Source: an uncultured Candidatus Saccharibacteria bacterium (lineage in GTDB: Bacteria > Patescibacteriota > Minisyncoccia > Phycocordibacterales > UBA2100). From it: a stretch of DNA of 64,000 bases. Below, piece by piece: positions 1,023 to 42,954 of this stretch. The position numbers and the translations under genes are program-made. Every line of letters starts with the position of its first letter. Position 1 is the stretch's first letter. The notes beneath the pieces were generated by a model. It was not told where the DNA came from. It saw only the letters and a program-made list of their open reading frames with translations, and did no database searches. The stretch is from the NCBI GenBank assembly GCA_964424265.1, contig CAYRHX010000005.1, positions 7,951 through 71,950 of the forward strand. The letters are read 5' to 3'.

Positions 1023-1748
1023 ATGAAACAGGCATACAATTTTACATGGCAGTCAGCACGCATGGTGCTCGCTGTTTCAATTCTTATTTTTTTCTGTACC
1101 GCAATATTTCTACTTTCTGCGCACTATGCATTTACCGAAGAATGGCAGGTGAGTGATGTTCCTGGGCTTCTGGTTACCGAAGTAGCGCCAGAGGTCCGTC
1201 CCAGCACCCCAAGCGCGAGTGAGAGGAGTGTGAGGCAACGCAGAGACAGAGATGCCTTTTTTGCCGAGCAGATTCAAGGTAAAAGAAATGTAACGATCAT
1301 TTCTGCTTCGGATTCAGATTTTTTGGCTAGCATGAGCGATCCGGCGTCTACCGACCTCATTTCTGACGTGACTTTCTATTTCCACGTTTCGAATCCCACG
1401 AACGACAAACTTTCTCTGCTAACAATACCTACGGGCATACGAGAAGGGACTTTGAATTACATTCGGATTGAGGGTGCTACAGGCTATAAGTGGCGCGATG
1501 GTCAGCTCGTCATAGCGTATGTGTCGCTTCCGCCAGGAGGATCAGCTACTGTAAGCGTCACAGGATTGCCACTTATCTCGGTAGAGCCTGTCACAATCGT
1601 GATTTCTCCTACCGTGCGAAGCGAGGACGGCGTGCTCTTGGCTAAAAATGTGTCTTCCCATCACATTATTGCGGGGAAACGACCTGATATCGTTGCAAAC
1701 TTCCACATGGGTACCGTGAAAGCAGCGAGCCTGCCCGTTTCTCAATAA
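1023..1748 (+). CDS. hypothetical membrane-anchored protein, directly upstream of and probably co-transcribed with the rhs gene
   Basis: N-terminal TM helix. The 7-nt gap to the RHS ORF suggests an operon. Confidence 0.5.
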   Translation: MKQAYNFTWQSARMVLAVSILIFFCTAIFLLSAHYAFTEEWQVSDVPGLLVTEVAPEVRPSTPSASERSVRQRRDRDAFFAEQIQGKRNVTIISASDSDFLASMSDPASTDLISDVTFYFHVSNPTNDKLSLLTIPTGIREGTLNYIRIEGATGYKWRDGQLVIAYVSLPPGGSATVSVTGLPLISVEPVTIVISPTVRSEDGVLLAKNVSSHHIIAGKRPDIVANFHMGTVKAASLPVSQ

Positions 1749-1754
1749 AAGTGT

Positions 1755-4700
1755 ATGTATTCTTCTTTGTTTAATAAACGTTCCGGACGGAGGATCGCGG
1801 CCACGCTCTTGCTCTCTCTCCTCATGCAATCGCTCGCCCCACTGTTGCCCCTCACCAGCGGATCATCGATCGCCTACGCCGACACTCCTTGCGGCGTTAC
1901 CACTTCCTCGGGCCCAGCAATTACAACCCAGTACGGGGGAGTAAAGCTCGATAAGGCGGCAACGTTCCTCGCAAACATGGACGATATCACAGGGGCATAC
2001 TTTGATCAGGGTAGAAATCAGATCGTATTCGTCGGCAAGACGAACACCACACTTCCAGAATTCGATAAGGACGATCTTGCGGTAGCGATCCGCGCAATCA
2101 TCTTCAACAATGCAATCCCAGCAGTAAGCATCGAATTTAAGGATTTGAATAATATTTCTGCATACCCAACGATGAACGTGCTGTATTATGGGGGAATCGA
2201 AGATACTAATTTCGGTAAGGTGCTTCTCGACGCTGATGTTCAGCTCAAAAGATACATGATGGGAGGTGAGAGTGGCAACCCCGTCCAAACCGCCGTTCTA
2301 GGCTACAGGTCGGTCCTTGCGCGCTGGATAGAAAATGGTCCAGACGTCGTTAGAACAACTGGCTCTGCCTCACGATGGTGGATTTCGCCCCTAACTGTCA
2401 CACTGAAGAGAGACACTACGAGCAACGCGTTCGTTTTTGACACAGTAGCAATGCAGGTGCAAAGTGCTCCCCTTATGGCTAACAATGATCCTGCGTGGGA
2501 TAAGGCTGCCCAAGACTTCGCGACACAGATGACGCAATCCTACGACGCGTACGCAGCGGAAATGCCATCTTTCGCGAAGGCGAAGCAACTAGGCAAGATA
2601 ACAAGCGTTATCAAATGGCTAAAGGATAATCAGATTGCCACTGATTTCCAATGGGCGAAAAATTATCAGCCCACATTTGTGCCGACATCAAGAGAGGTAC
2701 CCGTTATGACATCCGGCACAATGCGCTACACAAGCGGAAATTACTCTTGGGATTTCTGGATTGAGGGTGGGGTGGAATACTCTACTCCGAATAATTATAC
2801 GAGTGACACCACTGGGGCGTCGTTGCAAATGAAAGTCGCATCCAGTGCTGCAGCTCCGAGTTCTACCGACGGTGTTTCGTGGACATTCACATCGAATGGC
2901 CAGACATACAACTCTGTGGCGGTTTCAGCGGATCTGTTTCGCTCTGTTGGGGCGTACGCGTATTCAGAAACAGATGCCTCACTTCCGACGACCGCGCAGG
3001 TTCCGTTCAGTCTTACGCGTTCGTACTCCTCCTTTGCGACGGATATAAACAACGGGTTCGGCTTTGGGTGGACCTTCATGCCGGCGACGCTTACCGATGC
3101 TCTTCCGGGGATCGCAACATCTTGTACCGTTCCCGGCGGATACACGGGTTCGTACCCTTACCGACTGGCAGCTACGACACCCGCAGGACGCGAAACATTT
3201 ACTCTAAGCTGCGGTGTTGGATATATTCCCGACGACCCCTTGCTTTTTCATACCAAGATTGTTCCTGATACAGCCGGATATCTGAACGTCGTAATGAAAG
3301 ATCGGACATTCTACGCCTTCTCACGATTCCCGGTCAACAATAATTTTCCTCTCTACAGAATCGGAGATGCGAACGCGATAAGTAAGATCACCTTCTCCTA
3401 TAATGCGAATTACACTCGGGTTAACTCGATGACTGAGGCCTATTCTGGAAAATACATTACGCTTACCTACAATGCGCTCGATCAAGTTTCATCTGTTGTT
3501 ACGCCGAGCGGTACTCTTCAATATGGCTACGACGCAAATGGAGATCTCGTCTCTGCCACTGACGCCCGCGGCAATACAACTACCTATCAATACAATGCGG
3601 GCCATCTTCTCAAGTCGGTTACGGATCGCGCAGGCACGAGAATGATTGATAATACGTACGACTCGAGTGGCAGGGTTGTCCTCCAAACCGATGCACGTAA
3701 TGTCCCACGAACTATTACCTACAACAATACCGATCGCTCCGTATTATGGAGTGATCCCAATGGGCGCTCCGAACGTACTGCGTATGACTCGAAGGCCCGG
3801 CCACTGCAGGTGATAAACGCTCATGACGCAACTACCACGTTTGCGTACGATACGACGAGCAATGCGCCGACGAGCATCGCGGATGCACGCGGCAATGTGT
3901 CAAGCTTCGCGTTTGATGCGAAAGGTAACCCGTTGAGCTATACAACTCCAGACGGTGGAAGAACTCTCTTTACTTGGGATAGCTCCAACAACCTTCTGCA
4001 GGCAAGCGATCAGCGCTACATACCGATTACAGGCACGCCGAAAGTTGCGACCTACGCATATGATACAAAGGGCAATCGCACACAGGCGAACGTTGCAGGC
4101 ATATCGACCACCAACTTCACGTACACCACGCAAGGGAAGGTCGCAAGCATTACGGATCCACGTGGGAACATTACGCGATTCACGTACAATTCGAGTGGGC
4201 TTCCGCTAACAATCCAAGACCCGCTTGGCAGAATCACGACGTATACATACGATTCTGCCGGACGTGTTACTCAAATCACTGATCCTTTGGGCGTCGTCAC
4301 TAATATGACGCACGATGCGAATGGTAATCGCTTGTCGGTCAGCACTCCCGCAGGTGCGGCCACCTACACATACGATGCAAACGATCGCCTCCTCAGCACT
4401 ACAGACCCCGCCGGAGCGCTCGTACGGCGGACGTACAGTCCTTCTGGAAACCTTACTTCAGTGGTTGATCCCCTAGGAGCATCGACGGCATATGGTTACG
4501 ATTCGTATGGCAACGTTGTCCAAAGCGTCGATCCGCTCTCTCGCGTCACCACCTTCTCCTATGACTCGATGAACCGCGAAACGTTGTACCGAACGCCAGG
4601 TGGTAAATCGTGGACGACGAGCTACGACGCGGTAGGAAATCCAATCGCGCAAGCAACGCCAACAGGAACGCAAACTGCGGTTTTTGATTCGCTGAGCCGC

Positions 4701-7568
4701 ATCACATCTTCCGTAGCTGGTTCAGCTTCTCTCGCATATACGTACGACTCTGCAGGGCGGCTCACAAGAGTGACGGGGCCCGCTGGTGCGACAAACTATG
4801 CGTACGATATCAAAGACCGCCTGACTCAGACTACGGATACGTACGGAAATATCATTTCTTACCAATACGACCTCGCAGATAACCTCACGAGGATCACGTA
4901 CCCTGATGGTAAAACAGTTCAAAATCAATTTGACGCGGCAGGCCATCTCACGCAACAAAAAGATTGGACCGGAGGAGTTACGCTTTACACCTACACGGCG
5001 AACGGCGCATTGAGCACAAAAACACTTCCAAATGGAATCTCTGAAGCATACTCCTACGATTCCGCGGGCCGCATCGCAAGCATTGTGTATGGAAATCTCT
5101 CGCAGCCGACTCTGTTCCGTCAAATATTTAGTCGCGATGCGCGAGGTTTTGTATCACGTATTGTCGAAGATGGCTCTACGGTCACAGCACACGCCACAAA
5201 CTACCAATTCGATGCTGCGGGTAAACTCTTAAGCGCGATAGATACCGCGAGCGCTACTTCAACGTACGCCTACGACACAGTGGGTAACATTACCTCCAAT
5301 ACTGCGTCGCGTGTCGATTTCGTACCCACCATAGCCACAACGACAGTGACCGTGTTTAAAGACGCCGCCACGACAACGACGATCATAGCCACCGCAGCGA
5401 CGTCGACAACTGTGTATGCCACGACTACACGTACGTTGGTGCGATCTATTGCACCGACGGTTCCGTACCTTTCCCGATATTTGTTCAACGGCACACTCGC
5501 GTCAAGTGCGAAACGTGCGGATTCGCTTGCACCCTCTCAACTACTGACGGAGAGTACTCGGCTCGCGTCTGGCTCAGGGCGATTTGCGGATGCGAATGGC
5601 ACGTATGTTTTTGACGGCAGCAAGACACAGCTCTCTCTTGCCCTTGTTTATGCTCCCAGCGCTGGTAGCACAACGCTCTCGGCCTGGGTCAAAATGGCAC
5701 CTGGAACGTCAGGCACAATCCTCGGTGCTACCAATAGTTCACCCGCCGGATTTATGCGAATGTACGTCCAGCAGGGAATTTTGCACGGGGATCTAAACTG
5801 GACTTCAGGAAGTAATACGTATGCACTTGTTGCCAGCTCTAGCGCAATAAGAATCGACGACAACGCGTGGCACAAAGTCGATGTCGCGTTTGCCAATTTG
5901 TATCCACCAGCCAATGGCGATATCTTCTCAAATGCCATCTACCTGTATGTTGACGGTGCGCTCGTTTTGACAAAAAAGGGCAACACGGTCAACTACAATC
6001 TTCCTAGTTTTAACTACGGCTGGAAGGTTGGCGCGATGACAAACCCCAACAAGCGCGTAGATAAGTACTTCAAAGGTTCTATCGACGAAGTTGCGATCAC
6101 CAACACCGCGCTGACATCCCCTTCACAAATTCAGGGCCGCTTCGCAGCCGAAGCTACGACATCTCCGATATATATCTGGACTCCTGCCGCTACTACATCA
6201 ACGTCCTACGCGACAACAACTCTCGCCCTGACTCCGACCTCGACGAGTACGACTATTACCAGTATCGCGACGAGCACAGCTACAACTACAGTACCAGCAT
6301 CCACGGTCACCGCAACTGCCCAGAGCTACGCCACAACCACCACTACAGTGGCACCGGTAATTACGAACACGCAGACGTTCCTCGCGACAACTACTGCAAC
6401 TACGACGATCGTGACTCTCACAAGCGTGACCGCTGCAACGACCACAAACACATTTACTATCTCTACCAGCGTGTCCACGACAACTCTTGTTGCAACCCCT
6501 CGCTCGCTCTCAACCTCAAACGCATACTCTGCGGATGACGAATTGCTCCTGTCTGTAACGTCAGGAACTGCGCCGACGGCAACTGTTACTCACACATACG
6601 ATGCGGAGGGAAATTTGAAGTCGACCGCTGGTTCATCTTCCAGGGCGTACTCTTGGACATCTCTCGGACAGCTATCCTCGGTCGCCTCGACCGCTTTCAC
6701 CTACGATGCGTCCGGAAACCGAATCGGGAAGAGCGCGGCGACGACAACCCGATACGTCAACGACGTCCTTGCTCCGAATGCCTTAGTCCTCGTTGAAGCT
6801 AACGCCAGCAATGCTGCAAGCCGCATAAACGTCTGGGGAGGACACGGGCTTATTTCCACAGGGGGAACCGCCACGACAAGCAGGTACTATCCGATAACCG
6901 ATTCCCAAGGGTCTGTCCGATTTCTTTCAGATTCGTCCGGCTCAATCATTCGCGCTTATCAATATGATCCGTATGGCGTCTCCTCAACTTATGCCTCGAG
7001 TGCATCTACTAGCCCGTACCAGTACACCGGTGAAAACCTCGACTCAGAAACCGGCCTTGTCTATCTGAGAGCCCGCTACTACGATCCTGCGACGGGCCGC
7101 TTCATCTCCCGCGACCCCGTGCGCGGCGTCCTCGACAACCCACTAACTCAGAATCCGTATATCTACGCCGGCGACAATCCGATGATGTATAGTGATCCGA
7201 GTGGGGAGCAGGCATTTGCTCTGCCAGGAGCTGGTATTGGATCTTTCTTTGGCCCAGTCGGAACAGCCTGCGGATTCGTCATCGGTGGTATTGCGAGCCT
7301 CGTGATTGTAATATGGGCGGGAAACCAAATTGCTACTTTAAACCTCTCCCAGAGTGGAGCGGGACAAGGAACGCCAAAACCAAGTAATCCGCCATCGGGC
7401 ACAGTACCTATCGATCAAGCAGGATTTCCGCGAGGTACAGCAGATCAGATCAAAAAGATAATCGGGGCTCGTCCGAATGACTGGACAGGTATAGCGCCAA
7501 ATGGCGATATTATTACCGGAACACCAAATGGAGAGGTAATTAATCACGGTCCGATAGAGCCATTCTAA
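1755..7568 (+). CDS. RHS/YD-repeat polymorphic toxin with signal peptide, internal LamG (concanavalin-like) domain, Thr-rich linkers, RHS core end and variable C-terminal toxin tip
   Basis: Numerous YD repeats (YxYDxxGxL type, e.g. YQYNAGHLLKSVTDRAGTRMIDNTYDSSGRVV). LamG-like block around nt 5470-6150. RHS core terminus YQYTGENLDSETGLVYLRARYYDPATGRFISRDPV...NPYIYAGDNPMMYSDPSGE at nt ~7017-7205, followed by a ~120-aa unique tail. Confidence 0.85.
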   Translation: MYSSLFNKRSGRRIAATLLLSLLMQSLAPLLPLTSGSSIAYADTPCGVTTSSGPAITTQYGGVKLDKAATFLANMDDITGAYFDQGRNQIVFVGKTNTTLPEFDKDDLAVAIRAIIFNNAIPAVSIEFKDLNNISAYPTMNVLYYGGIEDTNFGKVLLDADVQLKRYMMGGESGNPVQTAVLGYRSVLARWIENGPDVVRTTGSASRWWISPLTVTLKRDTTSNAFVFDTVAMQVQSAPLMANNDPAWDKAAQDFATQMTQSYDAYAAEMPSFAKAKQLGKITSVIKWLKDNQIATDFQWAKNYQPTFVPTSREVPVMTSGTMRYTSGNYSWDFWIEGGVEYSTPNNYTSDTTGASLQMKVASSAAAPSSTDGVSWTFTSNGQTYNSVAVSADLFRSVGAYAYSETDASLPTTAQVPFSLTRSYSSFATDINNGFGFGWTFMPATLTDALPGIATSCTVPGGYTGSYPYRLAATTPAGRETFTLSCGVGYIPDDPLLFHTKIVPDTAGYLNVVMKDRTFYAFSRFPVNNNFPLYRIGDANAISKITFSYNANYTRVNSMTEAYSGKYITLTYNALDQVSSVVTPSGTLQYGYDANGDLVSATDARGNTTTYQYNAGHLLKSVTDRAGTRMIDNTYDSSGRVVLQTDARNVPRTITYNNTDRSVLWSDPNGRSERTAYDSKARPLQVINAHDATTTFAYDTTSNAPTSIADARGNVSSFAFDAKGNPLSYTTPDGGRTLFTWDSSNNLLQASDQRYIPITGTPKVATYAYDTKGNRTQANVAGISTTNFTYTTQGKVASITDPRGNITRFTYNSSGLPLTIQDPLGRITTYTYDSAGRVTQITDPLGVVTNMTHDANGNRLSVSTPAGAATYTYDANDRLLSTTDPAGALVRRTYSPSGNLTSVVDPLGASTAYGYDSYGNVVQSVDPLSRVTTFSYDSMNRETLYRTPGGKSWTTSYDAVGNPIAQATPTGTQTAVFDSLSRITSSVAGSASLAYTYDSAGRLTRVTGPAGATNYAYDIKDRLTQTTDTYGNIISYQYDLADNLTRITYPDGKTVQNQFDAAGHLTQQKDWTGGVTLYTYTANGALSTKTLPNGISEAYSYDSAGRIASIVYGNLSQPTLFRQIFSRDARGFVSRIVEDGSTVTAHATNYQFDAAGKLLSAIDTASATSTYAYDTVGNITSNTASRVDFVPTIATTTVTVFKDAATTTTIIATAATSTTVYATTTRTLVRSIAPTVPYLSRYLFNGTLASSAKRADSLAPSQLLTESTRLASGSGRFADANGTYVFDGSKTQLSLALVYAPSAGSTTLSAWVKMAPGTSGTILGATNSSPAGFMRMYVQQGILHGDLNWTSGSNTYALVASSSAIRIDDNAWHKVDVAFANLYPPANGDIFSNAIYLYVDGALVLTKKGNTVNYNLPSFNYGWKVGAMTNPNKRVDKYFKGSIDEVAITNTALTSPSQIQGRFAAEATTSPIYIWTPAATTSTSYATTTLALTPTSTSTTITSIATSTATTTVPASTVTATAQSYATTTTTVAPVITNTQTFLATTTATTTIVTLTSVTAATTTNTFTISTSVSTTTLVATPRSLSTSNAYSADDELLLSVTSGTAPTATVTHTYDAEGNLKSTAGSSSRAYSWTSLGQLSSVASTAFTYDASGNRIGKSAATTTRYVNDVLAPNALVLVEANASNAASRINVWGGHGLISTGGTATTSRYYPITDSQGSVRFLSDSSGSIIRAYQYDPYGVSSTYASSASTSPYQYTGENLDSETGLVYLRARYYDPATGRFISRDPVRGVLDNPLTQNPYIYAGDNPMMYSDPSGEQAFALPGAGIGSFFGPVGTACGFVIGGIASLVIVIWAGNQIATLNLSQSGAGQGTPKPSNPPSGTVPIDQAGFPRGTADQIKKIIGARPNDWTGIAPNGDIITGTPNGEVINHGPIEPF
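7008..7203. repeat. direct repeat copy 1 (RHS core 3' end); ~85% identical to 8205..8399, last ~65 nt near-identical
   Basis: The nucleotide string ctaactcagaatccgtatatctacgccggcgacaatccgatgatgtatag occurs in both copies. Confidence 0.75.
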
Positions 7569-7571
7569 AAT

Positions 7572-8015
7572 ATGCATCCATACGAATTCAACATCTCATT
7601 CAGGTTAACTCATCCTACAGAAGATTTGACACAGATTTACCAGAAGTTAAGTCTCGTGTCTGACTTTTTACCCCGACGAATTTGGAAAGCTGGAGATGAG
7701 CGCAAATCTCAACAAGGCAAGCGACTGGGGGGATACTATGAAAAGTCCTATTGCTATTTTGATCTTAATACCGGCTTGCAGAAAAGCACTTCACAATCAC
7801 TGACATCCGTCATAGAGAACATACTGACAAGGCTCACTCCTTTTAAGGATGTACTTGAAAAATTCTGTGGAAACGCTGGCCAGCTTGAATTCTTTATAGG
7901 TTTGTATGTTGTCGAAAACGCCGGGGAAACTCTACCTGTGACTTTACTCAAAAAACTCTCAGATTTTCAAATCGGTTTAGCGCTCGATATATATCCCCCT
8001 GGAAAGAACGAATAA
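7572..8015 (+). CDS. putative immunity protein for RHS C-terminal toxin 1
   Basis: Small AT-rich ORF immediately 3' of the toxin tip, in the canonical rhs toxin-immunity arrangement. No recognisable domain. Confidence 0.4.
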   Translation: MHPYEFNISFRLTHPTEDLTQIYQKLSLVSDFLPRRIWKAGDERKSQQGKRLGGYYEKSYCYFDLNTGLQKSTSQSLTSVIENILTRLTPFKDVLEKFCGNAGQLEFFIGLYVVENAGETLPVTLLKKLSDFQIGLALDIYPPGKNE

Positions 8016-8056
8016 ACGAGGGGGCGGAGATAGGTACAATTAAACCATGAAAGACC

Positions 8057-8815
8057 TTGGATAACATGAAGCGCCGTGCGGTTCTCACACTCCTTATAGC
8101 ATCAATCGCATTCTCGCCACTCACTGCGCTAGCCACAGGCGTAGCTGTGACACCCTTTGGCTGTGGCTATCTGGCCGCAATGGCTGCGCCATCGAGCACC
8201 TCAACCACTCCGTACCTCTACACCGGTGAAAATCTCGACTCTGAAACAGGTCTCGAATACCTCCGCGCTCGCTATTACGATCCGACAACTGGTCGCTTTA
8301 TCTCCCGCGACCCTGTCCGCGGCACCCTCGACAACCCACTAACTCAGAATCCGTATATCTACGCCGGCGACAATCCGATGATGTATAGCGATCCGAGCGG
8401 GAAGGTCTTCTTCGCCCCGCTTCTGATAATTGGCGGATTAGCACTTGCCACATTCCTGACAAATCCCATAATCGAATCGCCCTGTGCTGTAATGAATCCT
8501 ACTCCCGAAGATTTCGCTAAGGCTCAGGCATTGGAAACAGGATTCTTTGTCGCGGGATTTGTAGCACCTGGAGGTGCGCTGTCGAAAGGATTCAACCTTG
8601 TAATAAAACATCCACACGCGATACAACACTTGGTTGAGGGTATTACTTCAGAAATGTTAGATGCAGCTATCAGACGTGACGTCGCCGAAAAAGGAGCGAC
8701 ACTATTGGGTCAGACATTGCAGCGGGAAGTTAAAGTTGCGGGCGAGACTTTCATCTACCGTATACACACATGGGCAGAAGGACAAGTTAACGTGGGTACC
8801 TACTTCCTAAAGTAA
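8057..8815 (+). CDS. orphan RHS core-end + alternative C-terminal toxin cassette with its own start and signal-peptide-like N-terminus
   Basis: YLYTGENLDSETGLEYLRARYYDPTTGRFISRDPVRGTLDNPLTQNPYIYAGDNPMMYSDPSG, followed by a different ~140-aa tail. N-terminus MKRRAVLTLLIASIAFSPLTALA. Confidence 0.65.
   Translation: MDNMKRRAVLTLLIASIAFSPLTALATGVAVTPFGCGYLAAMAAPSSTSTTPYLYTGENLDSETGLEYLRARYYDPTTGRFISRDPVRGTLDNPLTQNPYIYAGDNPMMYSDPSGKVFFAPLLIIGGLALATFLTNPIIESPCAVMNPTPEDFAKAQALETGFFVAGFVAPGGALSKGFNLVIKHPHAIQHLVEGITSEMLDAAIRRDVAEKGATLLGQTLQREVKVAGETFIYRIHTWAEGQVNVGTYFLK
8205..8399. repeat. direct repeat copy 2 (orphan cassette), homologous to 7008..7203
   Basis: Nucleotide-level identity with the RHS core 3' end. 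Confidence 0.75.
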
Positions 8816-8820
8816 GCATT

Positions 8821-9183
8821 ATGAATCAGGATTTATACCGACCGCTAAAGATCGAGGAAAAAAGGATTCTGAATAGACTACTCAGTGCAAACTTTCCAGG
8901 TCGTGATAAAATACTCCAGCAAATCTCCAACTGCGAGGTCAAAGAATGGTCGGATGGATCACGTAGCCTTGAATTCCGCACAAGCTCAGAAGCAGCAGCT
9001 AACGTAATTGACAGGATACCTGTTGAAGGTAGATTCGGTCCAAACGGTGTTATTCAGATATTGCTCCATGTGCTAGAAAAGAAAATAAAATATCTGGAAT
9101 TTGTTACATTTCACCTAGATAACATAAAAAAGTTACCTAGTCCGGATGAGGTTTCCGTAATAGTAAAAGAGAAATTACAATGA
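8821..9183 (+). CDS. putative immunity protein for orphan toxin cassette
   Basis: Small AT-rich ORF 6 nt after the orphan cassette. Confidence 0.4.
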   Translation: MNQDLYRPLKIEEKRILNRLLSANFPGRDKILQQISNCEVKEWSDGSRSLEFRTSSEAAANVIDRIPVEGRFGPNGVIQILLHVLEKKIKYLEFVTFHLDNIKKLPSPDEVSVIVKEKLQ

Positions 9184-9778
9184 AATCGTTTTTTGGAACT
9201 CTGGGCTTGTTACTAAAGAAATTCGACGAGGAACATCTCCTAGCGGCGATACCTATTTTCTCTCGAATTGTCGCTGAGTTGGTAGAGGATATAAGTGGAA
9301 TAAGGTGTCAGGGAAATAAGGTATCCGGAACCTTTTTCACACTACAGAACGTTCTATAATCTAGTAACAGGTTCGGTCATTAAGTAATGCTATGAGCAAA
9401 GAAATGGAATTGGATTTCTCAGATGTTAAAACCCCTCAGGATGTGGAGTACGAGTTTCTATTCCTAATCAGAAACTTCCTGTAGAAGACAACCTCCGTTT
9501 GATTTTTGATAAGTGGTTTTCCCCGATCCAGTCATCAGATAATACGCTTATACCTAAACTTGCGTTAGCCATCACAGGCAAGCTGGGGAAAAAAATCTCG
9601 GATGAAGTGCCGTCATCTTATTCTGAGGGACGAGGAAGGAGCACTCCCTGCTTTCTGATCCGTTCACTGATCTCTCACGTTGGGGGTAATGGTGTCAGGT
9701 ACCATTAAGATCTGATACGGGGGAGTAGACAATCTTGGGGGAAATTGTGTTGACTAAGTATATACATCTGTATATACT

Positions 9779-10036
9779 TTGCATATGAAAATAACTGCTA
9801 TCCAAAAATGGGGGAACAGCTATGCGGTGCGTATCCCAAAGACCACCGTGCGCAAACTTAATTTGAAGGCGGGTCATACCGTAGAAATTCGAGAGATGGA
9901 TCACGGCCGAGCATTTTCTATTACTCCGGTGCCGACTGATACAGACTCATTCGATGAGTTGGTTGAGAGAATTACGAAAGAAAATACTCACGGACCAACA
10001 GATTGGGGCAAAGCGATGGGGAAAGAAGTATGGTAG
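9779..10036 (+). CDS. mazE: MazE/PemI-type antitoxin (AbrB/SpoVT fold)
   Basis: KWGNSYAVRIPK motif. Overlaps the downstream toxin start (ATGGTAG). Confidence 0.75.
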   Translation: MHMKITAIQKWGNSYAVRIPKTTVRKLNLKAGHTVEIREMDHGRAFSITPVPTDTDSFDELVERITKENTHGPTDWGKAMGKEVW

Positions 10037-10374
10037 CGAAGGGTCGGTATATTCCTCGTCGCGGGCACGTGGTGTGGGTCGATTTTGATCCTGTTCGCGG
10101 ACACGAGCAAAGGGGGAAACGCCCGGCAATGATTGTCTCGTCTGAAAAATATAACGCGAAATCGGGCCTTGCTCTCGCATGCCCTATCACATCCCGCGCA
10201 AAGGGATATCCATTTGAAGTATCACTTACTACCAAGGCGATGACAGGCGTAATACTGGTGGATCAAATTCGTTCGATTGACTGGTCACAACGGCGAGCGA
10301 AAAAGATGGGATCTGCCTCCGAAAAAACAATCGCGGATGTTCAAAATCTCCTGAAAAAACTGATTACCGACTGA
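10030..10374 (+). CDS. mazF: MazF/PemK mRNA interferase toxin
   Basis: Alignable along its full length to E. coli MazF: RYIPRRGHVVWVDFDPVRGHEQRGKRPAMIVS...GYPFEV...ILVDQIRSIDW. Confidence 0.8.
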   Translation: MVAKGRYIPRRGHVVWVDFDPVRGHEQRGKRPAMIVSSEKYNAKSGLALACPITSRAKGYPFEVSLTTKAMTGVILVDQIRSIDWSQRRAKKMGSASEKTIADVQNLLKKLITD

Positions 10375-11461: not shown

Positions 11462-12862
11462 ATGGAAAGAACACTTATCAAAGATTTACAAAACGCTGTC
11501 AACACGACGGTACTCATCAAAGGATGGGTCTCAGTACGCCGCGATCAGGGCAAGATGGTCTTCTTCGACTTCCGCGACATGACGGGCACGGTGCAGGGCG
11601 TGGTGCTTCCGGGCAGCGCAGCGATTGAAACTGCAAAAAATACCAGCAGAGAAAGCGTCGTGCATGTGACAGCCGAAGTGAAAGCACGACCAGAAAAGAA
11701 TAGGCAGCACGGGAAACTCAACGGCGACATTGAGGTGGTTGTGAACGAGCTCATGGTCGAAAGCCCTTCTGCAGTGCTACCTTTTGAAATAAACGAAGAT
11801 ACTTCAGGTATCGGCGAAGAGAATCGCCTCAAGTATCGATACCTCGATCTCCGGAGCGAGAGAATGCAGCGTAACATTCGTTTGAGAAGCGAATTTGTGC
11901 AGCGATGCCGCGAGTTTCTATTTGCGCAACATTTTACAGAGATCGAAACGCCATTGCTTACGGAGTCGACTCCCGAGGGCTCGCGTGATTTCGTGGTGCC
12001 CTCGCGTATTCACCCAGGCAAATTTTATGCCCTCCCGCAGTCTCCCCAGCAATACAAGCAACTCCTCATGGTGGGTGGTTTCGAGCGTTATTTTCAAATT
12101 GCGCGTGCTGTGCGCGACGAAGATCTGCGCGCCGACCGCGGATTCGAGCACACGCAAGTCGATATAGAAATGTCATTTGTGGATCAAGAAAGCGTGATGC
12201 AGACAGTTGAAGCGATGATCACCACTTCGGTGGAAGCTATGGGATTTACGGTGAAGCAGAAACCATTTCCACGTGTCACCTATGCAGAATCTATGGAGAA
12301 ATACGGCGCAGACAAATTTGATTTGCGAACTGAAGAGGAGAAGAAAGAGGGGATCCTTGCATTTGCGTGGGTGTATAAATTTCCTTTTTTCGAGAAAACA
12401 CCAGAAGGAAAATGGACATTCACGCACAACCCATTCTCAATGCCTATCGCTGAACACATCGATGATTTACTCACCCAAAAAAATATCGAGGGCATCCTCA
12501 CGACCCAGTACGACCTTGTGTGCAATGGCTTCGAATCGGGAGGGGGGAGCATTCGAGCGCACCGGCCAGAAGTACTCAGGGCTACATACCGAGCAATGGG
12601 ATATTCGGATGAAGAAACGCAGGAGCGCATTGGTCACATGTTAGAAGCGTTTAAATATGGCACGCCGCCTCATGGAGGCATCGCGATCGGCGTTGAACGC
12701 ATCATTATGAACCTCACCGGGGAATCGTACTTGCGTGAGGTGCAGGCATTTCCGATGACTCGTGGCGGGCAGACTGCGGTCATGAATGCGCCAAAGCCTC
12801 TTACTAAAGAGCAGCTCGAAGAGCTGCATCTACAAATCAAACCAACACATAAACATGAGTGA
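11462..12862 (+). CDS. aspS: aspartyl-tRNA synthetase (class II, short form without GAD insertion)
   Basis: LPQSPQQYKQLLMVGGFERYFQIARAVRDEDLRADRGFEHTQVDIEMSF. C-terminal GGGSIR motif 3. Confidence 0.9.
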   Translation: MERTLIKDLQNAVNTTVLIKGWVSVRRDQGKMVFFDFRDMTGTVQGVVLPGSAAIETAKNTSRESVVHVTAEVKARPEKNRQHGKLNGDIEVVVNELMVESPSAVLPFEINEDTSGIGEENRLKYRYLDLRSERMQRNIRLRSEFVQRCREFLFAQHFTEIETPLLTESTPEGSRDFVVPSRIHPGKFYALPQSPQQYKQLLMVGGFERYFQIARAVRDEDLRADRGFEHTQVDIEMSFVDQESVMQTVEAMITTSVEAMGFTVKQKPFPRVTYAESMEKYGADKFDLRTEEEKKEGILAFAWVYKFPFFEKTPEGKWTFTHNPFSMPIAEHIDDLLTQKNIEGILTTQYDLVCNGFESGGGSIRAHRPEVLRATYRAMGYSDEETQERIGHMLEAFKYGTPPHGGIAIGVERIIMNLTGESYLREVQAFPMTRGGQTAVMNAPKPLTKEQLEELHLQIKPTHKHE

Positions 12863-16260: not shown

Positions 16261-17388
16261 TTGAATGATACTATGATGTCCATGCGCCACGGACGAGTTG
16301 ATAAGCCACTCCTCCTTCTTCTTTTCATCCTCATACTCGGAGGAGCTGCGATATTCGCGTCGGCTGCTTTTGGTTTACTCGCACGAGGACAGGAAGGGAT
16401 GACCTCGGTGGCGTTCAACCATCTCGTTCTCGGCGTGGGTCTTGGCCTGATTGCGCTTATAGTCTCGGCACACGTTCACTATCGAAACTGGAGGAAATTC
16501 GCGCCCTATCTCTACGGATGCGCACTTCTCGGCACTGCGCTCGTATTTGTCCCGGGATTGGGTTTTACCCACGGCGGAGGTACCCGGTGGATTGACATCG
16601 GTGGATTATCATTACAGCCGTCTGAAGCATTAAAAATTACATCGATTATTTTTGCTGCAGCATACTTCTCTGCAGTACGGGGGCGGGCGGAGTCGCTTCA
16701 ATGGGGCCTCGGGGGCTTCTTTGCGATCATAGCTCTTCCCGCAGCGCTCCTCTTTTTCCAACCCGACATAGGAACGCTGATCATCATAATCATCCCTGTG
16801 TTCGTCATATACGTCGTCGCAGGAGCCCAGTGGCGACACATTGGTGTCGTCATGGCCATAGCCCTTATATGCTTTGCAGCTCTAATATACGTAAAACCGC
16901 ACGCACGGGATCGTGTCATGACCTTTATTGACCCCGCCCGGAATCAGCTCGCTTCCGGATATCAAATTCGTCAATCGCTTATTGCCATTGGATCGGGGCA
17001 ATTTATGGGCCGTGGTTTCGGTCAGGGCATACAGAAATTCACCTACCTACCAGAGCCAATGGGAGACTCGATATTTGCTGTTGCTGCAGAGGAATTTGGT
17101 TTTGTGGGCGCGGTCACAATAGTGCTTCTATTCCTCGCTTTCGGCCTGCGGGCGTATGGTATCGCGGTACACACCAGTGACCTCTTCGGAGGGCTATTGG
17201 TCATCGGAATTTCTACCTATCTTGTCGGTGAGGCCTTTATAAACATTGCCGCAATGCTTGGATTGGCCCCCCTCACCGGAGTGCCTCTCACATTTGTAAG
17301 TCAGGGCGGTAGCGCCATGCTCACATCTCTTGCAAGCGCCGGAATATTGCTCAACATCTCAAGAATCAAGCGCTCTTCGGTCGTTTGA
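16261..17388 (+). CDS. ftsW: SEDS-family lipid II flippase/PG polymerase FtsW
   Basis: SEDS topology. Located between mraY and murG. Confidence 0.8.
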   Translation: MNDTMMSMRHGRVDKPLLLLLFILILGGAAIFASAAFGLLARGQEGMTSVAFNHLVLGVGLGLIALIVSAHVHYRNWRKFAPYLYGCALLGTALVFVPGLGFTHGGGTRWIDIGGLSLQPSEALKITSIIFAAAYFSAVRGRAESLQWGLGGFFAIIALPAALLFFQPDIGTLIIIIIPVFVIYVVAGAQWRHIGVVMAIALICFAALIYVKPHARDRVMTFIDPARNQLASGYQIRQSLIAIGSGQFMGRGFGQGIQKFTYLPEPMGDSIFAVAAEEFGFVGAVTIVLLFLAFGLRAYGIAVHTSDLFGGLLVIGISTYLVGEAFINIAAMLGLAPLTGVPLTFVSQGGSAMLTSLASAGILLNISRIKRSSVV

Positions 17389-27928: not shown

Positions 27929-30900
27929 TTAATCCTGAACGACGAAGTTGACCAATCTCCCGGGCACGACAATCGTCCGCAAGACATTTTTCCCATCCAG
28001 TCGCGCTTTTACTATCTTGCGCGCGGCATCTTCAAGAACAGTCCTATCGGCTCCAATATCCACCTCCACGGTACCGCGTGTTTTACCGTTGATTTGTACG
28101 GCAATGGTAAGGATTTCACTCTTGAGAAGAGTCTCGTCGTACCGCGGCCACTTTTCGAGGTGGATAGATTTTTTGTGATCCACCCTCCAGAGTTCTTCTG
28201 CCATGTGCGGCGCAAATGGCGCAATAAGCCGCAAGAAGATCCCCCACTGCAACCTCCCTATCTTCCCCTCTTTCTCGATGGCATTGAGGAAAATCATTAA
28301 TTGGCTGATGCCGGTATTAAATTTGAGCGCGCCTATGTCTTCGCCAACTTTTTTTATCGTTTTATGCAGTAAGCCGTTGAGCCCAGGAATGTCGTTCTTC
28401 TCGACTGCTGATCGCATTCGCCATACTCGCTCAATGAACCGTCGAACGCCGACGACGCCATCTGGATTCCAGGGATAATTCGAAACCTCATTGTAAGGGC
28501 CGATAAAGGCAAGGTACATGCGCACGGTGTCGGATCCGAGCAATGCGACGACTTCATCTGGATCTATCACATTACCGCGCGATTTGCTCATCTTCTGACC
28601 ATCAGGACCCATAATGAGGGAGCGGTTCATGCGTCGGGTATACGGCTCTTTATCTTTGACAAGGCCTAGGTCATACATCGCCTTCTGCCAAAAGCGACTG
28701 TACAAAACGTGCATTGTCGTATGTTCTGCTCCTCCAGAGTACAAATCGATCGGCATCCATTTTGCGAGCTTCTTAGGATCCGCAAATTGCTTTTTATTAT
28801 TCGGATCCGTATAGCGTTGAAAATACCAAGAAGAATCGACGAAAGTATCAAATGTGTCAGTCTCCCGCTCGGCGCCCCCCTTACACTGCGGACACCTCAC
28901 CTTGACCCACTTCGTCACCTTAGCAAGTGGTGACTTGCCACTCCCTTCGGGCAAATAATCTTTCACCTCGGGGAGTTTGACCGGTAGCTTACGATCCTCG
29001 ACGGCAACGGGCCCGCATGTGGGACAGTGGATGATCGGGATCGGCACACCCCAATATCGCTGACGAGAAACGATCCAATCGCGGAGCTTGTATGTTGTCT
29101 TTTTGCGACCGAATTTTTCTACGATTTTGAGCGCCGCCGCTTCACTCGCTAACCCTGAGAACTCTCCTGAATCGACGAGAATACCCTCCTTGGCATAACA
29201 CGCGTTGCCGATGACTCGACACCACGCAATTCGCATGTCCTCTCGGTTGATGAAATTATCCATCTCATCCTTGGATAGCCATGAGACTTCGTGCTCCGCT
29301 TTTTCCTCAGGTGATATCTCATTTTGCAAACCGTTCTCGAGCTTGAAAAGGAGAGGTGTGTAATACACGGATGTATTTCTTTTCCGCACGTCGCTGAAGT
29401 ATTTGCTGTGGATGGCGCCACCGAGTTGTCTGACAAAAACCGCATTTGAATAACCCGTTTCCTCGGCAATCTCTCGCTTGGCTGCAGACACGGGATCCTC
29501 TCCGTCGTGGATACCACCCGAGACGAACCCCCGTACATCAGTGGGTTTGTAGAGGACGGCCTGATATTTCTCCTCCGACCAATGTTTGACAACGGCGAGG
29601 ATGGACCGTCGAGCAAAGAACTCCTCGTCCGCATGAACCGCATCAAGCCCTCTCGTCTGCACCACAAGAGGTTCGATTACCTCGTTAATCGGCAGGTTGA
29701 ACTTCGTCGCAAACGCGTGATCGCGCTCATCATGGGCAGGCACCGCCATAATCGCACCCGTCCCGTAGTGTCCGAGCACATAATCAGCGACCCACACGGG
29801 GATCTTCTTCCCACTTGCAGGATTGATTGCTTTCACACCATTTAACTCAACACCGGACTTTTCTTTCTGATCGGCTTGCCGCTCGAGATCTGTTTTCCGC
29901 TTCGCTTTTTCAACATACTCCTTGATCTCATCTTTATTTTTCAATATGTTGTGCTTTCCGTCTACCGCACGAATGACCCATGGGTGCTCCGGAGCAAGAA
30001 CGAGGTACGTCGCGCCAAAGAGTGTATCAGCGCGAGTCGTAAATACTCGAACCGTCGGTCGCAGCCACATAAGAACATCGGGCTCGGTGTCACCCGTGAA
30101 ATGGGGTTTATTCGATGTGCTAGTTATGCTTTGTGTACCGAGAAGCTTCGCAAGTGCCTCTGTCTGAGCATCGGAAATAGCGTGATCGCGCGGGTCGTGG
30201 AGAACGGTCACTGAGCGAACGTTTTTTCGGATCGCTTCCCCGTCAAATTTCCATGTCCATTTTTTTTCAAAACTCCTCTTTTTATCTTTAAAATTTGTAT
30301 CGACGAAGCCACCCACAGTCACGAGGCGCGCAAGCGGCTTTGTGAGTCGCTCCGCGACTTTGAGGGCAAGCACTGCCCCAAGGCTGTGTCCCACAAGAAC
30401 AGTTCGTTCGTCGTATTTTGTCGTGCGAAGAGCAAACTCCACTTGCTCTGCTTCTGATGGATTGCCCGAATTGGGTAGCCGAGGCACGAGTACTTCATGA
30501 CCCATGGCTTCGAGTTCTTTTTTTACCCATTGCCACCGAGGTAGATCGGGAGAGCCTTCAAAACCATGGAAAATTACAAATTTGTACTTCTCGCCAGTTT
30601 CAATCAGGAAATCTATCTCCGCGCCCTCCGAGCGGCCGATCCAATTTCGCTGTGACTCCTTGATTTGCTCGGGCCAGTTTAGATCTTTGAGATCATCGAT
30701 CAAACGATCCGCGTAATCGGTGATTTTGATATTCCACTGGAGCATCTTCTTTTGCACCACATCGCTATCACAACGCTCACACTTCCCCGCAACGACCTGC
30801 TCATTAGCAAGCACTGTCTTATCTTTCGGACACCAATTTACGGCTGTGTTTTTGCGATACGCCAATCCTGCTTTGAAAAATTGCAAAAAAAGCCACTGAG

Positions 30901-42700: not shown

Positions 42701-42954
42701 CGTGATCCTCGTTTGAGCGTATACGTAAGATCGGGACAGGATGATGGCTGACTGGCCTGTTGAGGATAGTCATCAGAAGGGGTGTCATTGGAGTGTCCGG
42801 TGGGCGAGGTTCCTTGAGACAACGCCTGAAGCTGAGCCATCAATGCTTGGATCTGCGCTTCCAACGCCTGGATAGTCGTCAACTGTTGAGCGGACGCGAG
42901 GAACGGTGAGACCAGAAGTATGCCGGTGATTGCGAGAGCTGCTTTTTTGTGCAT
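39754..42954 (-). CDS. large secreted protein with PG-binding, LamG and PKD-like domains
   Basis: Signal peptide with coiled coil. PG_binding_1-like (VSGLQVFLANHFNLGEE...GYFGARTEQYVKRFQTENGL). LamG-like block. PKD-like EAPLEVRF...GDGQSG. Confidence 0.6.
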   Translation of the reverse strand: MHKKAALAITGILLVSPFLASAQQLTTIQALEAQIQALMAQLQALSQGTSPTGHSNDTPSDDYPQQASQPSSCPDLTYTLKRGSRDASTGGQVSGLQVFLANHFNLGEETLVGGYFGARTEQYVKRFQTENGLPSFGIVGSLTRAKIVQICGGMPPVPPVPPTPPCDLISAALGQCQSVSPDPTKVPIFSWQGPKEFNGTDTYVSTGRIPDSTAFTIGAWVFYTGTSCGTIFSDADGAGGNDMWIGVSDRSIIVRNDKNGAQLAGGSDCDIGYPIPLQTSISGSWHHVAWSNTGNSSTVFLDGSKVQTVNIPSNNIGHHNATPSIGRMYDMPGVYPNGINHFKGYLASIVYYAAAMSDAQVVELYSKTPKPQTPEGCSPWLQLFGLCNFPVNPPQAITATLWASRIGHCSVPFWLVKPWECFQKDTSFFVGGTVFFQVKVLDNPGSPFTPEEGAEVRINQVSASGSINDVDVMQFNANTGYYELSADDHTGANDVGTWTATVTVYKHGNQIVTSNPLIYSVTRRAEPFVAGSFTATPTSGEAPLEVRFGAKGSSSAFIVYFGDGQSGFLFPPTIFSEGSDLSHVYSTPGTYTAQLSQGVGMPGVGMQPTTVLETPISQRSLGQVALANPQPLLATTKITVTGTSTSSLSATPASGQAPLTVTLQAPTSVQDKMQKCKYSYGWYGSSGNGLTIDWGDGVSSPSNVQARVGQSCTNEVTSHTYATPGSYTIKAESWHPGPTDAPITDWVAMTSITVGNATSAPSISLTSPISGRTFTQGNPIPVMWSVTNMPSTASMYIQLVGADGGVANSRTVTAAIGTSSVATSGTCNGNFSDGLMACDQMMSGTSYKIRARIFTPQDACLGYTFSRCQSPTILASAESGLFSIVPPTGAATGSAGANAASSSSTSTRLVAVGVYSGSTVVNGRSSITVNIAPGTQPLILSLSAFSSVDWVIVNPSGRAIQRIFATGYHSQTVTGHGTTPLETYSYDQGTGYVYAYSKSSTNYTNLANFLKIKTGLDISDYQGTYQASSFTTPSATISSTTSISNLAAALAALEALLKSWGAQLGR

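Follow-up and report, generated by a model that had tools for sequence, protein, structure and literature searches.

A probable Sec-exported RHS polymorphic-toxin locus of known layout, with unnamed toxin tips and a leader-bearing spare tip

Two described groups of systems provide the closest comparisons for the locus presented here. In Enterobacteria (E. coli, Salmonella and Dickeya), a main rhs gene is accompanied by orphan rhs-CT/rhsI modules (reviewed in PMC4436062). In monoderm bacteria, WapA-type RHS toxins are Sec-dependent, and include the tRNase WapA of Bacillus subtilis (PMC5566331) and WapA of Streptococcus suis (PMC12704120). The Ntox33 toxin domain, recognized by [DN]xHxxK and DxxxD motifs or an H-K-D triad (PMC3482391, PMC9424270), is partnered in Salmonella Rhs proteins by DUF4279 (PMC3482391, PMC9424270, PMC13304343), which is a published immunity family, FdL-Imm5 (PMC9424270, PMC13304343).

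Judged from its sequence, the locus is of a known layout, both of its toxin tips appear to belong to unnamed families, and its spare tip is predicted to carry an export signal of its own. We are confident that the region, part of the 64,000-nucleotide stretch of DNA analyzed here (the window), is a Sec-exported RHS polymorphic-toxin locus composed of a main toxin/immunity module and a second, leader-bearing tip/immunity module, and we infer a role in contact-dependent competition.

The main RHS gene and its surroundings

The initial annotation placed four open reading frames at 1755-7568, 7572-8015, 8057-8815 and 8821-9183, and read them as a main rhs gene, an immunity gene, an orphan tip and a second immunity gene. 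All four frames were confirmed, and domain matches together with a direct repeat bear out the layout. The four genes are separated by gaps of 3, 50 and 5 nt, an operon-like spacing, and counts of promoter and terminator signals at the locus were no higher than chance. The features of the main gene and the sequence upstream of it are:

1023..1748, + strand: conserved upstream ORF, 241 aa, with an N-terminal membrane anchor or signal, ending 6 nt 5′ of the RHS start
1755..7568, + strand: main RHS/YD-repeat toxin gene, 1937 aa, with RHS_repeat, DUF6531, TEN_YD-shell, YD_repeat_2x and Rhs_assc_core matches
1755..1880, + strand: signal-peptide-like N-terminus, aa 1-42 (...SSIAYA/DTPC), judged by eye from the translation
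1881..3200, + strand: lineage-specific N-terminal domain, ~440 aa, holding the Cys pair C457/C486
5709..6101, + strand: inserted Laminin-G/ConA-like domain, C-terminal to the YD repeats and ahead of the RHS core, with Thr-rich linkers on both sides
6963..7205, + strand: RHS-associated core (aspartyl-autoprotease plug), TIGR03696, ending ...SDPSG, with a predicted cut before E1818
6996..7208, + strand: direct repeat copy 1, codon-aligned with the main ORF, a candidate recombination tract

The main protein was expected to be a YD-repeat protein of 1937 aa with a core ending in DPSGE and a tail of about 120 aa, and profile searches agree. Pfam RHS_repeat (PF05593) matches it over 14 stretches (E=1.6e-89), alongside DUF6531, and the NCBIfam profile YD_repeat_2x (TIGR01643) matches with E=1.8e-68. 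Residues 1737-1817 correspond to Rhs_assc_core (TIGR03696, E=4.2e-21), terminating in ...YSDPSG/E, and a 120-aa tail lies C-terminal to this core. The RHS-associated core has been assigned the role of an aspartyl-autoprotease plug (PMC8636562), and the core of the main protein would cut itself after ...DPSG. Ahead of this core, the exported protein would consist of a signal peptide, the lineage-specific N-domain and a YD-repeat shell with a lectin-like insert.

The first cysteine of the main protein, C46, is found directly beyond the signal-peptide-like segment, and an N-terminus of this type followed by a Cys is common to 11 related RHS proteins. The ~440-aa N-terminal domain matches no Pfam family except DUF6531 (aa 399-441). 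It is 48-52% identical to the RHS N-termini of locus L011 and of P0015, a 2846-aa RHS protein from locus L022, and a search with this domain found 3 genome loci and 17 metagenome loci. RHS proteins sharing this N-terminal domain carry unrelated C-terminal tails (the window, L011, L017, L022, L024, L027, L030, L031, L034 and L035). The match of aa 1319-1449 to Laminin_G_2 (E=7.5e-4) is under the gathering score. Relatives have different inserts in the place of this domain, for example Ig_Rha78A_N. No cell-wall-binding repeats were found in the main protein by Pfam search. The closest full-length relative is carried by GCA_016699245.1, a complete 1.05-Mb Patescibacteria genome.

The upstream ORF, which has no Pfam match, is possibly an accessory protein; its homologues (19-38% identity) sit directly 5′ of the RHS gene in L011, L017, L022 and L023. 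Housekeeping genes and a MazEF pair are the neighbors of the locus in the window, with no dedicated secretion system nearby. The window also encodes a DUF5671 protein and short aminoacyl-tRNA synthetases; with the Patescibacteria genome of the full-length relative, these make a Patescibacterium (CPR) the most likely host. On the 3′ side, an AT-rich region (9184-9778, with a 59-aa ORF) gave no Pfam match and no tblastx similarity to related loci, and is left out of the RHS system.

The orphan tip gene and tip exchange

Downstream of the first immunity gene, the features of the second module as far as the end of its core are:

8021..8065, + strand: conserved element 5′ of the first orphan (GAGGGGxCxGG ... 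ATCATGAAA), common to L011 orphan 1 and the L024 orphan
8047-8064, + strand: mini-ORF of 5 codons (MKDLG, then stop) inside the conserved element
8066..8815, + strand: orphan RHS-tip gene, 249 aa, with a signal-peptide-like leader and Cys, an RHS core fragment, a pre-toxin segment and a toxin
8066..8164, + strand: orphan leader, MKRRAVLTLLIASIAFSPLTALA followed after the predicted cut by TGVAVTPFGC (Cys = C33), in frame with the core; signal peptide judged by eye
8192..8404, + strand: direct repeat copy 2, codon-aligned with the orphan ORF; it forms the core fragment of the orphan, whose last residues are DPSGK

The orphan ORF is open from 8057, and its start is most likely ATG 8066, the choice of the gene caller. 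The earlier description of this ORF as the end of an RHS core fused to a different tail agrees with the TIGR03696 match (E=8.5e-21), the repeat shared with the main gene and a 137-aa tail that is unrelated to tail 1. Like a classical orphan, the gene combines a core fragment with a distinct CT and its own immunity gene, and shares a homology tract with the main core; it is not simply 5′-truncated, however, and has its own ATG and signal-peptide-like leader. In the second module, 50 nt on from the first, a signal peptide and Cys leader would run in frame into the last ~70 aa of the core.

The repeat (6996-7208 and 8192-8404) is 213 nt long and 84% identical, and covers the ~70 last core residues. 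Its 3′ edge is the DPSG-E/K codon, and a run of 64 identical nt within it stops 14 nt short of that edge. At the DNA level, the whole cassette of core, toxin and immunity gene shares 74% identity with L011 orphan 1 and its immunity gene. Tips appear to move, because the tail-2/Imm2 cassette is found at the main position in P0015/L022 and at the orphan position in the window and L011; the cassette exchange proposed in the initial annotation is in keeping with this distribution. Homologous recombination over the codon-aligned repeat would fuse tail 2 onto the main gene, and such a tip switch would remove 1196 nt comprising tail 1, Imm1 and the leader. No tip-switched variant of the window's own locus was seen.

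Leaders homologous to that of the window orphan precede L011 orphans 3 and 4 and the L024 orphan, while L011 orphan 1 and L027 orphan 2 have other leaders of the signal peptide and Cys type. This type of leader is thus present in 6 of the 12 related orphans (the window and 5 others). The remaining six are leaderless and begin within the core, some with decayed remnants upstream; no out-of-frame leader remnants were seen 5′ of the leaderless orphans.

Two accounts of the orphan can be weighed against these leaders. The better-surviving one, to which we give slightly less than an even chance, is that the orphan is a silent spare part, serving as recombination substrate and carrier of extra immunity with no translation or export of its own, and that its leader is left over from an internally deleted full-length RHS gene. 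The homology tract to the main core, the leaderless half of the related orphans with their decayed remnants, and the lack of a detected promoter are consistent with a silent gene, and the leaders resemble the N-termini of main genes, as an internal deletion predicts. Set against this, all six leaders are intact, in frame and end at the conserved Cys, after which they meet the core at differing points. A conserved upstream element with start codons also precedes the first orphans in three genomes, and the invariant residues of the orphan toxin are intact.

The second account, which we regard as doubtful, is that the orphan is expressed independently as a Sec-exported mini RHS-tip toxin in which leader-Cys and autoprotease plug precede the cargo, and that it works either shell-less or alongside the main RHS protein. 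Its ATG, signal-peptide-like leader and complete reading frame would suit this function, as would the nearly whole Rhs_assc_core (profile positions 10-75 of 76), the retention of both conserved cysteines, and the same architecture in L011, L024 and L027. We know of no precedent for an independently exported toxin of this kind, however, and found none in the literature searched. The route of an unencapsulated toxin to its target is not evident, the L024 copy is truncated, and the better ribosome-binding-like motif in the window belongs to the upstream start that opens the 5-codon mini-ORF, not to the orphan start.

RHS proteins of this lineage contain few cysteines. They retain a Cys directly beyond the signal peptide, and every toxin tail has a single Cys; the window orphan keeps both. 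It could be proposed that a C46-C1839 disulfide holds the toxin of the main protein, and that signal-peptide “orphans” that keep this Cys pair and the plug are working, independently exported mini-toxins, a combined model that we find hard to favor. If true, it would describe a shell-less form of RHS-tip delivery and a redox-controlled release step. The signal peptide and Cys leaders on half of the orphans, together with the kept Cys pair, have a bearing on how a cleaved toxin might be retained or released.

With their ~1-Mb genomes, Patescibacteria live attached to other bacteria. If the locus belongs to an episymbiotic Patescibacterium, its target could in principle be the bacterial host cell, which would be killed or made to release resources, and not competing kin. 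The presumed Patescibacteria lineage, the large surface-type domains on the RHS proteins (LamG-like, Ig-like and uncharacterized N-terminal) and the ~1% of a ~1-Mb genome devoted to the locus would be compatible with a host target. Polymorphic tips with cognate immunity and orphan immunity arrays nevertheless signal conflict between relatives (PMC4436062, PMC3482391), and a host-directed weapon seems unlikely.

Toxin tails and immunity genes

Each tail consists of a pre-toxin segment and a toxin domain, followed by a small gene:

7209..7367, + strand: tail 1 pre-toxin segment, a Gly-rich hydrophobic stretch with the sole tail cysteine C1839 (+22 from the cut), then a linker
7368..7565, + strand: tail 1 toxin module, ~65 aa, beta-alpha-beta-beta-beta, of a rare family, possibly Ntox33-like
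7572..8015, + strand: immunity gene 1, 147 aa, DUF4279/FdL-Imm5, no signal peptide
8405..8572, + strand: tail 2 pre-toxin segment, two hydrophobic stretches flanking the sole tail cysteine (ESPC, C140, +28 from the cut)
8573..8812, + strand: toxin domain of tail 2, ~80 aa, modeled with a fold of the RelE/BECR type
8821..9183, + strand: immunity gene 2, 120 aa, no signal peptide, with weak DUF6984 similarity

The initial annotation named no family for either tail, and this stands for both in Pfam. The first small ORF, however, does belong to a family: ORF 7572-8015 matches DUF4279 (PF14106) with E=2.3e-7 and 31.6 bits, above the gathering cut-off of 25. DUF4279-type ORFs follow tail-1 homologues at five independent loci (the window, L003, L004, L005/6 and L008/9), and the proposal that ORF 7572-8015 acts as the cognate immunity gene of tail 1 is supported. 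The producer would be guarded by this cytoplasmic protein, encoded 3 nt downstream of the main gene.

Tail 1 itself is harder to place. A Pfam search at E<=10 with the window tail and all 10 family members named no family, comparison with PDB sequence profiles gave no match, and the model has no fold neighbor. Assignment to Ntox33 was tried directly and lacks statistical support: no member of this set matched PF15533 at that threshold, hhalign against one, then three Ntox33 sequences returned probabilities of 0.5-1.7%, and Smith-Waterman scores against shuffles reached a z of at most 3.2. An HxxK motif is present in 7 of the 10 family members and HxxxK in one more, and an invariant Lys and a subsequent invariant Asp are found in all 10, with no DxxxD motif in the family. 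An RHS protein of the same lineage, in L017, has a bona fide Ntox33 tip with DUF4279, and the pairing is also present in L020 and L021. Tail 1 may therefore be Ntox33-like by motif and partner, even though the homology tests failed. In the window copy (TADQIKK), Asp replaces the motif His that most homologues have, and this copy could be attenuated. The 120-aa cargo of the main protein would thus comprise a hydrophobic single-Cys pre-toxin segment and a ~65-aa alpha+beta module, maybe of Ntox33 type.

It is very unlikely that tail 1 is instead a bacteriocin-like membrane pore former acting through its Gly-rich hydrophobic segment. The segment weakly resembles microcin V (MccV) and the class II bacteriocins in Pfam, with E=0.43 and 9.7, and tail-1 homologues have glycine-zipper-like segments. 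Neither Pfam match reaches significance, however, and conservation within the family lies in the C-terminal module of ~55-65 aa, not in the hydrophobic segment. The DUF4279 immunity protein is soluble and lacks a membrane segment. Hydrophobic stretches of the same single-Cys kind are also found ahead of unrelated toxin domains, Ntox33 and the RelE-like domain among them, so that the segment has the look of a pre-toxin or entry element common to different toxins.

Tail 2 has no match by sequence in Pfam, NCBIfam or PDB sequences. Its predicted structure resembles the RelE/BECR toxin fold in fold comparison, a toxin and not a structural domain, in line with the reading of this tail as a toxin in the initial annotation. 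Because the modeled fold is of RelE/BECR type, tail 2 is probably an RNase. Within the family, H184 and Y231 are invariant and H188 is near-invariant (numbering from ATG 8066), and the conserved H184, H188, D205 and Y231 are candidate catalytic residues. The cargo of the second module would then be a pre-toxin segment and a RelE/BECR-fold domain, with its own immunity gene next to it.

ORF 8821-9183 reaches 16.9 bits (E=0.0065) against DUF6984 (PF22480), under the gathering cut-off of 24.6. Weak DUF6984 matches are seen in 2 of 3 members of the immunity-2 family. Imm2 homologues follow tail-2 homologues in L011-14, L015, L022/23 and L034 (twice). The ERZ27296333 contig has the same Imm2 homologue as L015. 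Imm2 homologues that are 70, 69 and 39% identical to the window protein lie directly 3′ of tail-2-type toxins that are 72, 71 and 47% identical, so that across these sequences the divergence of Imm2 tracks that of its toxin. A role for ORF 8821-9183 as the cognate immunity gene of tail 2 is likewise supported. Both small ORFs are conserved beside homologous tips, the first at five loci and the second at five or more, where a lack of such conservation had been anticipated as a possible objection to the annotation.

The AT-richness noted for the cassette region was borne out for the immunity genes, with a GC content of 0.41 and 0.39 compared to 0.52 for the RHS body. It did not extend to the rest of the cassette: the toxin domains (0.47-0.475) are slightly below the body, and the orphan leader (0.58) and orphan core (0.55) are above it.

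Comparison with known systems

The locus, with its exchangeable tips and its ~1% share of the genome, provides a handle on how Patescibacteria may fight competitors or hosts. It adds a toxin family of RelE/BECR-like type, apparently without annotation so far, together with the matching immunity family, and a very rare, possibly Ntox33-like module paired with DUF4279.

Compared to Ntox33/DUF4279 pairs, tail 1 has a similar alpha+beta module of ~65 aa at its C-terminus, in a family where most members show HxxK and all a subsequent conserved Asp; it has no structural neighbors, and is followed directly by a DUF4279 gene. It differs in having no Pfam Ntox33 match and no DxxxD, and, in the window copy, Asp for the motif His. 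Tail 2 resembles the BECR-fold RNases (RelE, HigB, YafQ and ParE, and the CdiA-CT tRNases EC3006 and Kp342; PMC9086364) in its predicted strand, helices and three-stranded antiparallel sheet, in conserved residues (His/His/Tyr(-Arg)/Thr) like those that these RNases use, and in its position at the C-terminus of a polymorphic toxin. Unlike them, it has no sequence relationship to any solved structure or Pfam family. The HxxxH motif with which the domain starts is a candidate part of its active site.

As in WapA, the main protein has a putative N-terminal signal peptide (judged by eye) and an RHS/YD shell, a C-terminal toxin predicted to be of nuclease type, an adjacent immunity gene and no dedicated secretion machine nearby. 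It differs from WapA in the absence of detected cell-wall-binding repeats, in an unrelated, lineage-specific N-terminal domain, in other toxin and immunity families, and in the presence of an orphan array.

The enterobacterial rhs loci have, like the window locus, a YD-repeat shell and an RHS core terminating in DPxG. Their C-terminal toxins likewise vary, each with its immunity gene next on the 3′ side, and farther downstream lie orphan modules in which the core end is duplicated and which can recombine with the main gene. The window locus is distinguished from them by a predicted Sec-type signal peptide for export, outside any PAAR/VgrG/T6SS context, by extra domains inserted before the core in its lineage, by a hydrophobic single-Cys pre-toxin segment after the predicted cleavage site in its tails, and by an orphan with its own start codon and a putative in-frame signal peptide and Cys leader.

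The RHS locus and its surroundings

The locus carries two unannotated toxin families, one at the tip of an RHS protein and one on an orphan module downstream of it, and the analysis supports the interpretation offered in the initial annotation, that of an RHS polymorphic toxin locus to which an orphan module belongs; by type it would be Sec-dependent. All four ORFs proposed there are present in the window and lie close together, 3, 50 and 5 nt apart.

Features of the locus in the window
1023-1748: conserved upstream ORF, 241 aa, membrane-anchored, directly before the RHS gene
1755-7568: main RHS gene, 1937 aa, with RHS repeats, DUF6531 and RHS core; ends in toxin tail 1
1890-1892 and 7269-7271: Cys codons of the main gene (C46 and C1839)
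7572-8015: first immunity gene (Imm1)
8021-8065: conserved element before the first orphan
8057-8815: orphan tip gene, start most likely ATG 8066, as in the public gene call; ends in toxin tail 2
8162-8164 and 8483-8485: Cys codons of the orphan (C33 and C140)
8821-9183: second immunity gene (Imm2)

The main gene had been described as encoding a YD-repeat protein with an RHS core ending in DPSG|E, and it yields 14 matches to the RHS-repeat family PF05593 (E=1.6e-89), a Pfam match to DUF6531, and the RHS-associated core TIGR03696 at aa 1737-1817 (E=4.2e-21), which ends in ...YSDPSG|E. Judged by eye, its N-terminus (MYSSLFNKRSGRRIAATLLLSLLMQSLAPLLPLTSGSSIAYA|DTPC) has the appearance of a Sec signal peptide. 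A weak Laminin-G-like match lies at aa 1319-1449, with Thr-rich linkers on either side; together with these low-complexity linkers, the LamG/ConA-like insert between the YD repeats and the RHS core spans 5300-6450 (aa ~1190-1560), and in relatives the same place is taken by Ig_Rha78A_N/FN3-like repeats or a triplicated unknown domain instead. The RHS N-terminal domain, used as a query, retrieved 20 related loci.

The ORF at 1023-1748 matched no known family, and homologues with 19-38% identity lie immediately before every related RHS gene examined (L011 989-1846; L017 9394-10008; L022 5468-5995; L023 416-1111; L numbers denote related loci from other genomes or metagenomes). Its product may have an accessory or partner role. 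The neighbours of the locus are a histidine kinase at one end and, at the other, a MazEF pair, trpS and a short aspS. MazE (9779-10036, E=1.3e-12) and MazF-PemK (10003-10374, E=2.3e-30) form a type II toxin-antitoxin pair directly after the RHS cassettes. The intervening 9180-9778 is AT-rich (GC 0.41-0.43) and holds a 59-aa ORF overlapping the Imm2 stop codon (ATGA); neither Pfam nor comparison with the related loci gave a match here, and the stretch may be what is left of a cassette that has decayed.

The gene for P0015, the closest full-length relative, lies in GCA_016699245.1, whose complete sequence of 1,054,716 bp is listed with those of Patescibacteria, and among the other genes of the window are those for a DUF5671 protein and for compact aminoacyl-tRNA synthetases; we infer a Patescibacteria (CPR) origin. 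The aspartyl-tRNA synthetase (11462-12862) has just 466 aa; its match to the bacterial model of 590 aa falls into two stretches, an indication that part of the model's middle is missing. A 1125-aa leucyl-tRNA-synthetase-like ORF at 27929-31306 has extra hydrolase and NUDIX Pfam matches, and a second large surface-type protein of 1066 aa (39754-42954, minus strand) matches PG_binding_1 (weakly), Laminin_G_3 and, faintly, PKD.

Cassette pairing and movement

The second ORF was said to restart in the RHS core and continue into a different tail, and it does so: the orphan covers positions 10-75 of the 76 in TIGR03696 (E=8.5e-21), and the tail 2 that follows is unrelated to tail 1. At the DNA level, a 213-nt direct repeat of 84% identity (6996-7208 and 8192-8404) includes 64 nt of perfect identity, ending 14 nt short of the 3′ edge, the DPSG-E/K codon. 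Both copies are codon-aligned, so that a crossover would yield an in-frame RHS-tail 2 chimera with 1196 nt deleted, and tip switching would proceed by recombination at this repeat. The switching event itself was not observed in the window locus; its substrate is present, and the tail-2/Imm2 cassette occurs in both positions across genomes, as the tip of the full-length 2846-aa P0015 and as an orphan in the window and L011. Comparison across genomes thus documents that the cassette moves between the two positions, in line with the cassette exchange first proposed. The core-toxin-immunity stretch of the window (~8190-9184) and the L011 cassette share 74% DNA identity. The claim that the cassettes are AT-rich is correct in part: it stands for the two immunity genes (GC 0.41 for Imm1 and 0.39 for Imm2; RHS body, 0.52), the toxin domains are only slightly low in GC (about 0.47), and the orphan leader (0.58) and the orphan core fragment (0.55) lie above the body.

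Both small ORFs, put forward as immunity candidates, recur beside homologous tips in other loci. A search of 5.8 billion proteins turned up only nine homologues of tail 1, and in every case with usable context (L003, L004, L005/L006, L008/L009) an ORF homologous to Imm1 lies directly downstream. Imm1 belongs to DUF4279, with a score above the Pfam cut-off; this family has been described, under the name FdL-Imm5, as one that provides immunity in polymorphic toxin systems (PMC9424270), and an Rhs-Ntox33 effector of Salmonella has been suggested to have it as its immunity partner (PMC13304343). In L003, a tail-1-type orphan (1880-2724) has a frameshift between RHS core fragment and toxin part and adjoins serine recombinase genes, with its DUF4279 gene still intact.

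Three homologues of Imm2 were found, each directly behind a tail-2-type toxin. A second contig, ERZ27296333, also has P0013, preceded there by a gene of 1693 aa or more, and L034 holds two further pairs of tail-2-type toxin and Imm2-type gene.

Imm2 homologues (identity to ORF 8821-9183) and the toxins before them
P0012: 70% identity; behind orphan 1 of L011; toxin 72% identical to tail 2
P0013: 69% identity; behind the L015 toxin, 71% identical to tail 2 over a 119-aa fragment
L022 ORF 14553-14903: 39% identity; behind the P0015 tip; toxin 47% identical to tail 2

Arrays of 3-4 orphan tip/immunity modules occur in relatives (L011 8703-13034, which terminates at an IS element; L027 12039-16110; L034 14429-17988), with immunity families that include DUF7674 and DUF2283; Imm26 is present in L017, a locus without an orphan array.

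Orphan leaders and conserved cysteines

The window orphan starts with MKRRAVLTLLIASIAFSPLTALA|TGVAVTPFGC, and an in-frame leader resembling a signal peptide is found on 6/12 orphans examined in the lineage, the others being L011 orphans 1, 3 and 4, the L024 orphan and L027 orphan 2. Every leader ends at a Cys and then meets the core at a differing point. Since the leaders resemble main-gene N-termini (L027 orphan 2, ...LIPVFQNSFSPQKVYAETC; main gene, ...FVPAFQTPLSPQKAEAAG), these orphans look like internally deleted full-length genes with the reading frame intact. The other six are classical, beginning inside ...LRARYYDP without a leader, and no out-of-frame leader remnant was found upstream of them. 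An intergenic element, GAGGGGxCxGG...ATCATGAAA, precedes the first orphans in three genomes (also L011 ~9075-9104 and L024 ~17290-17339); in the window and L024 it starts a mini-ORF of five codons whose stop lies just ahead of the orphan ATG, and in L011 its ATG is in frame with the orphan.

Main RHS proteins of the lineage are cysteine-poor, with 4 Cys among the 1937 aa of the window protein and 0.81% Cys in the other window ORFs. Their Cys pattern does not change across the lineage: one Cys lies 2-7 aa past the signal-peptide cleavage site (4-14 aa in orphan leaders), and a pair lies near aa 455 and 485. The tail after the predicted self-cleavage site holds exactly one Cys in 11/11 main proteins, 16-34 aa after the cut in 9/11, and each of the nine complete orphans that were examined has a tail Cys (in L011 orphan 3 there is a second, near-terminal one). 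It is kept although the tails are unrelated toxin families, and leader-bearing orphans retain both the N-terminal and the tail Cys. The latter often sits within an 'NC[DN]xG' motif behind a hydrophobic helix. A disulfide tether of the cleaved cargo is a reasonable hypothesis from this conservation; that leader-bearing orphans and the Cys pair will prove a real variant seems rather unlikely at present.

The two toxins and known systems

The initial annotation could name neither tail, and both remain outside named families. The last ~75 aa of tail 2 have 26 relatives (full HMMER scan of 1.84 billion representatives), in which the domain is always C-terminal, usually after an RHS core, with an invariant His and Tyr and a near-invariant His, Asp and Gly (xKxxHAxxHL ... 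AIxxD ... YRA ... GxINVGTYF). The best Foldseek match of its AlphaFold model (pLDDT 75 overall, 85-90 in the core) is HigB2 (probability 0.99, E=0.014). Neighbours of the HigB2 type are BECR-fold ribonucleases, and on this structural ground tail 2 is probably an RNase whose BECR family has yet to be annotated. CDI examples of this fold cut tRNA (PMC9086364).

Going by its sequence, the protein would be exported via Sec and, from its family membership and by the mechanism described for RHS proteins (PMC8636562), would form a cage and cleave itself at DPSG|E. The cargo, as the sequence shows, comprises a hydrophobic pre-toxin segment and the toxin domain. The toxins would act in the cytoplasm, because the immunity proteins lack signal peptides and the fold is of the RNase type; protection by the neighbouring genes is supported by co-occurrence and co-divergence.

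In the tail 1 family, conservation is confined to a C-terminal module of ~55-65 aa (PxxAPSGTKPIDxxGLxRxxxHxIKxxxGAxxxDWTGIAPNGDvITxxpdGxxINHGP), predicted with confidence (pLDDT 82) to fold as a small beta-alpha-beta-beta-beta unit. Ntox33 has been described as a domain of alpha+beta type carrying [DN]xHxxK and DxxxD motifs and an H-K-D triad, without structural neighbours and of unknown function (PMC3482391, PMC9424270). The RHS protein of L017, a relative within this lineage, has a bona fide Ntox33 tip (E=5e-14) followed by DUF4279 (E=4.5e-19), and Pseudomonas and Deinococcus plasmids also carry Ntox33-DUF4279 pairs. Tail 1 and Ntox33 have in common their size, position and immunity family, and the motif in part: seven of the ten tail 1 family members have HxxK, all ten keep its Lys and a later invariant Asp, and DxxxD is absent; window tail 1 and its closest homologue, P0001, have Asp in place of the motif's His (TADQIKK in the window). 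The likeness may serve as a lead, and Ntox33 membership is not shown because Pfam, hhalign and Smith-Waterman statistics all fail to connect the two. The host lineage is one in which such weapons have barely been studied; one paper refers briefly to an RHS/YD toxin of a Saccharibacterium, next to which lies an immunity gene (PMC6031116), so RHS toxin loci in CPR bacteria are not new in themselves.
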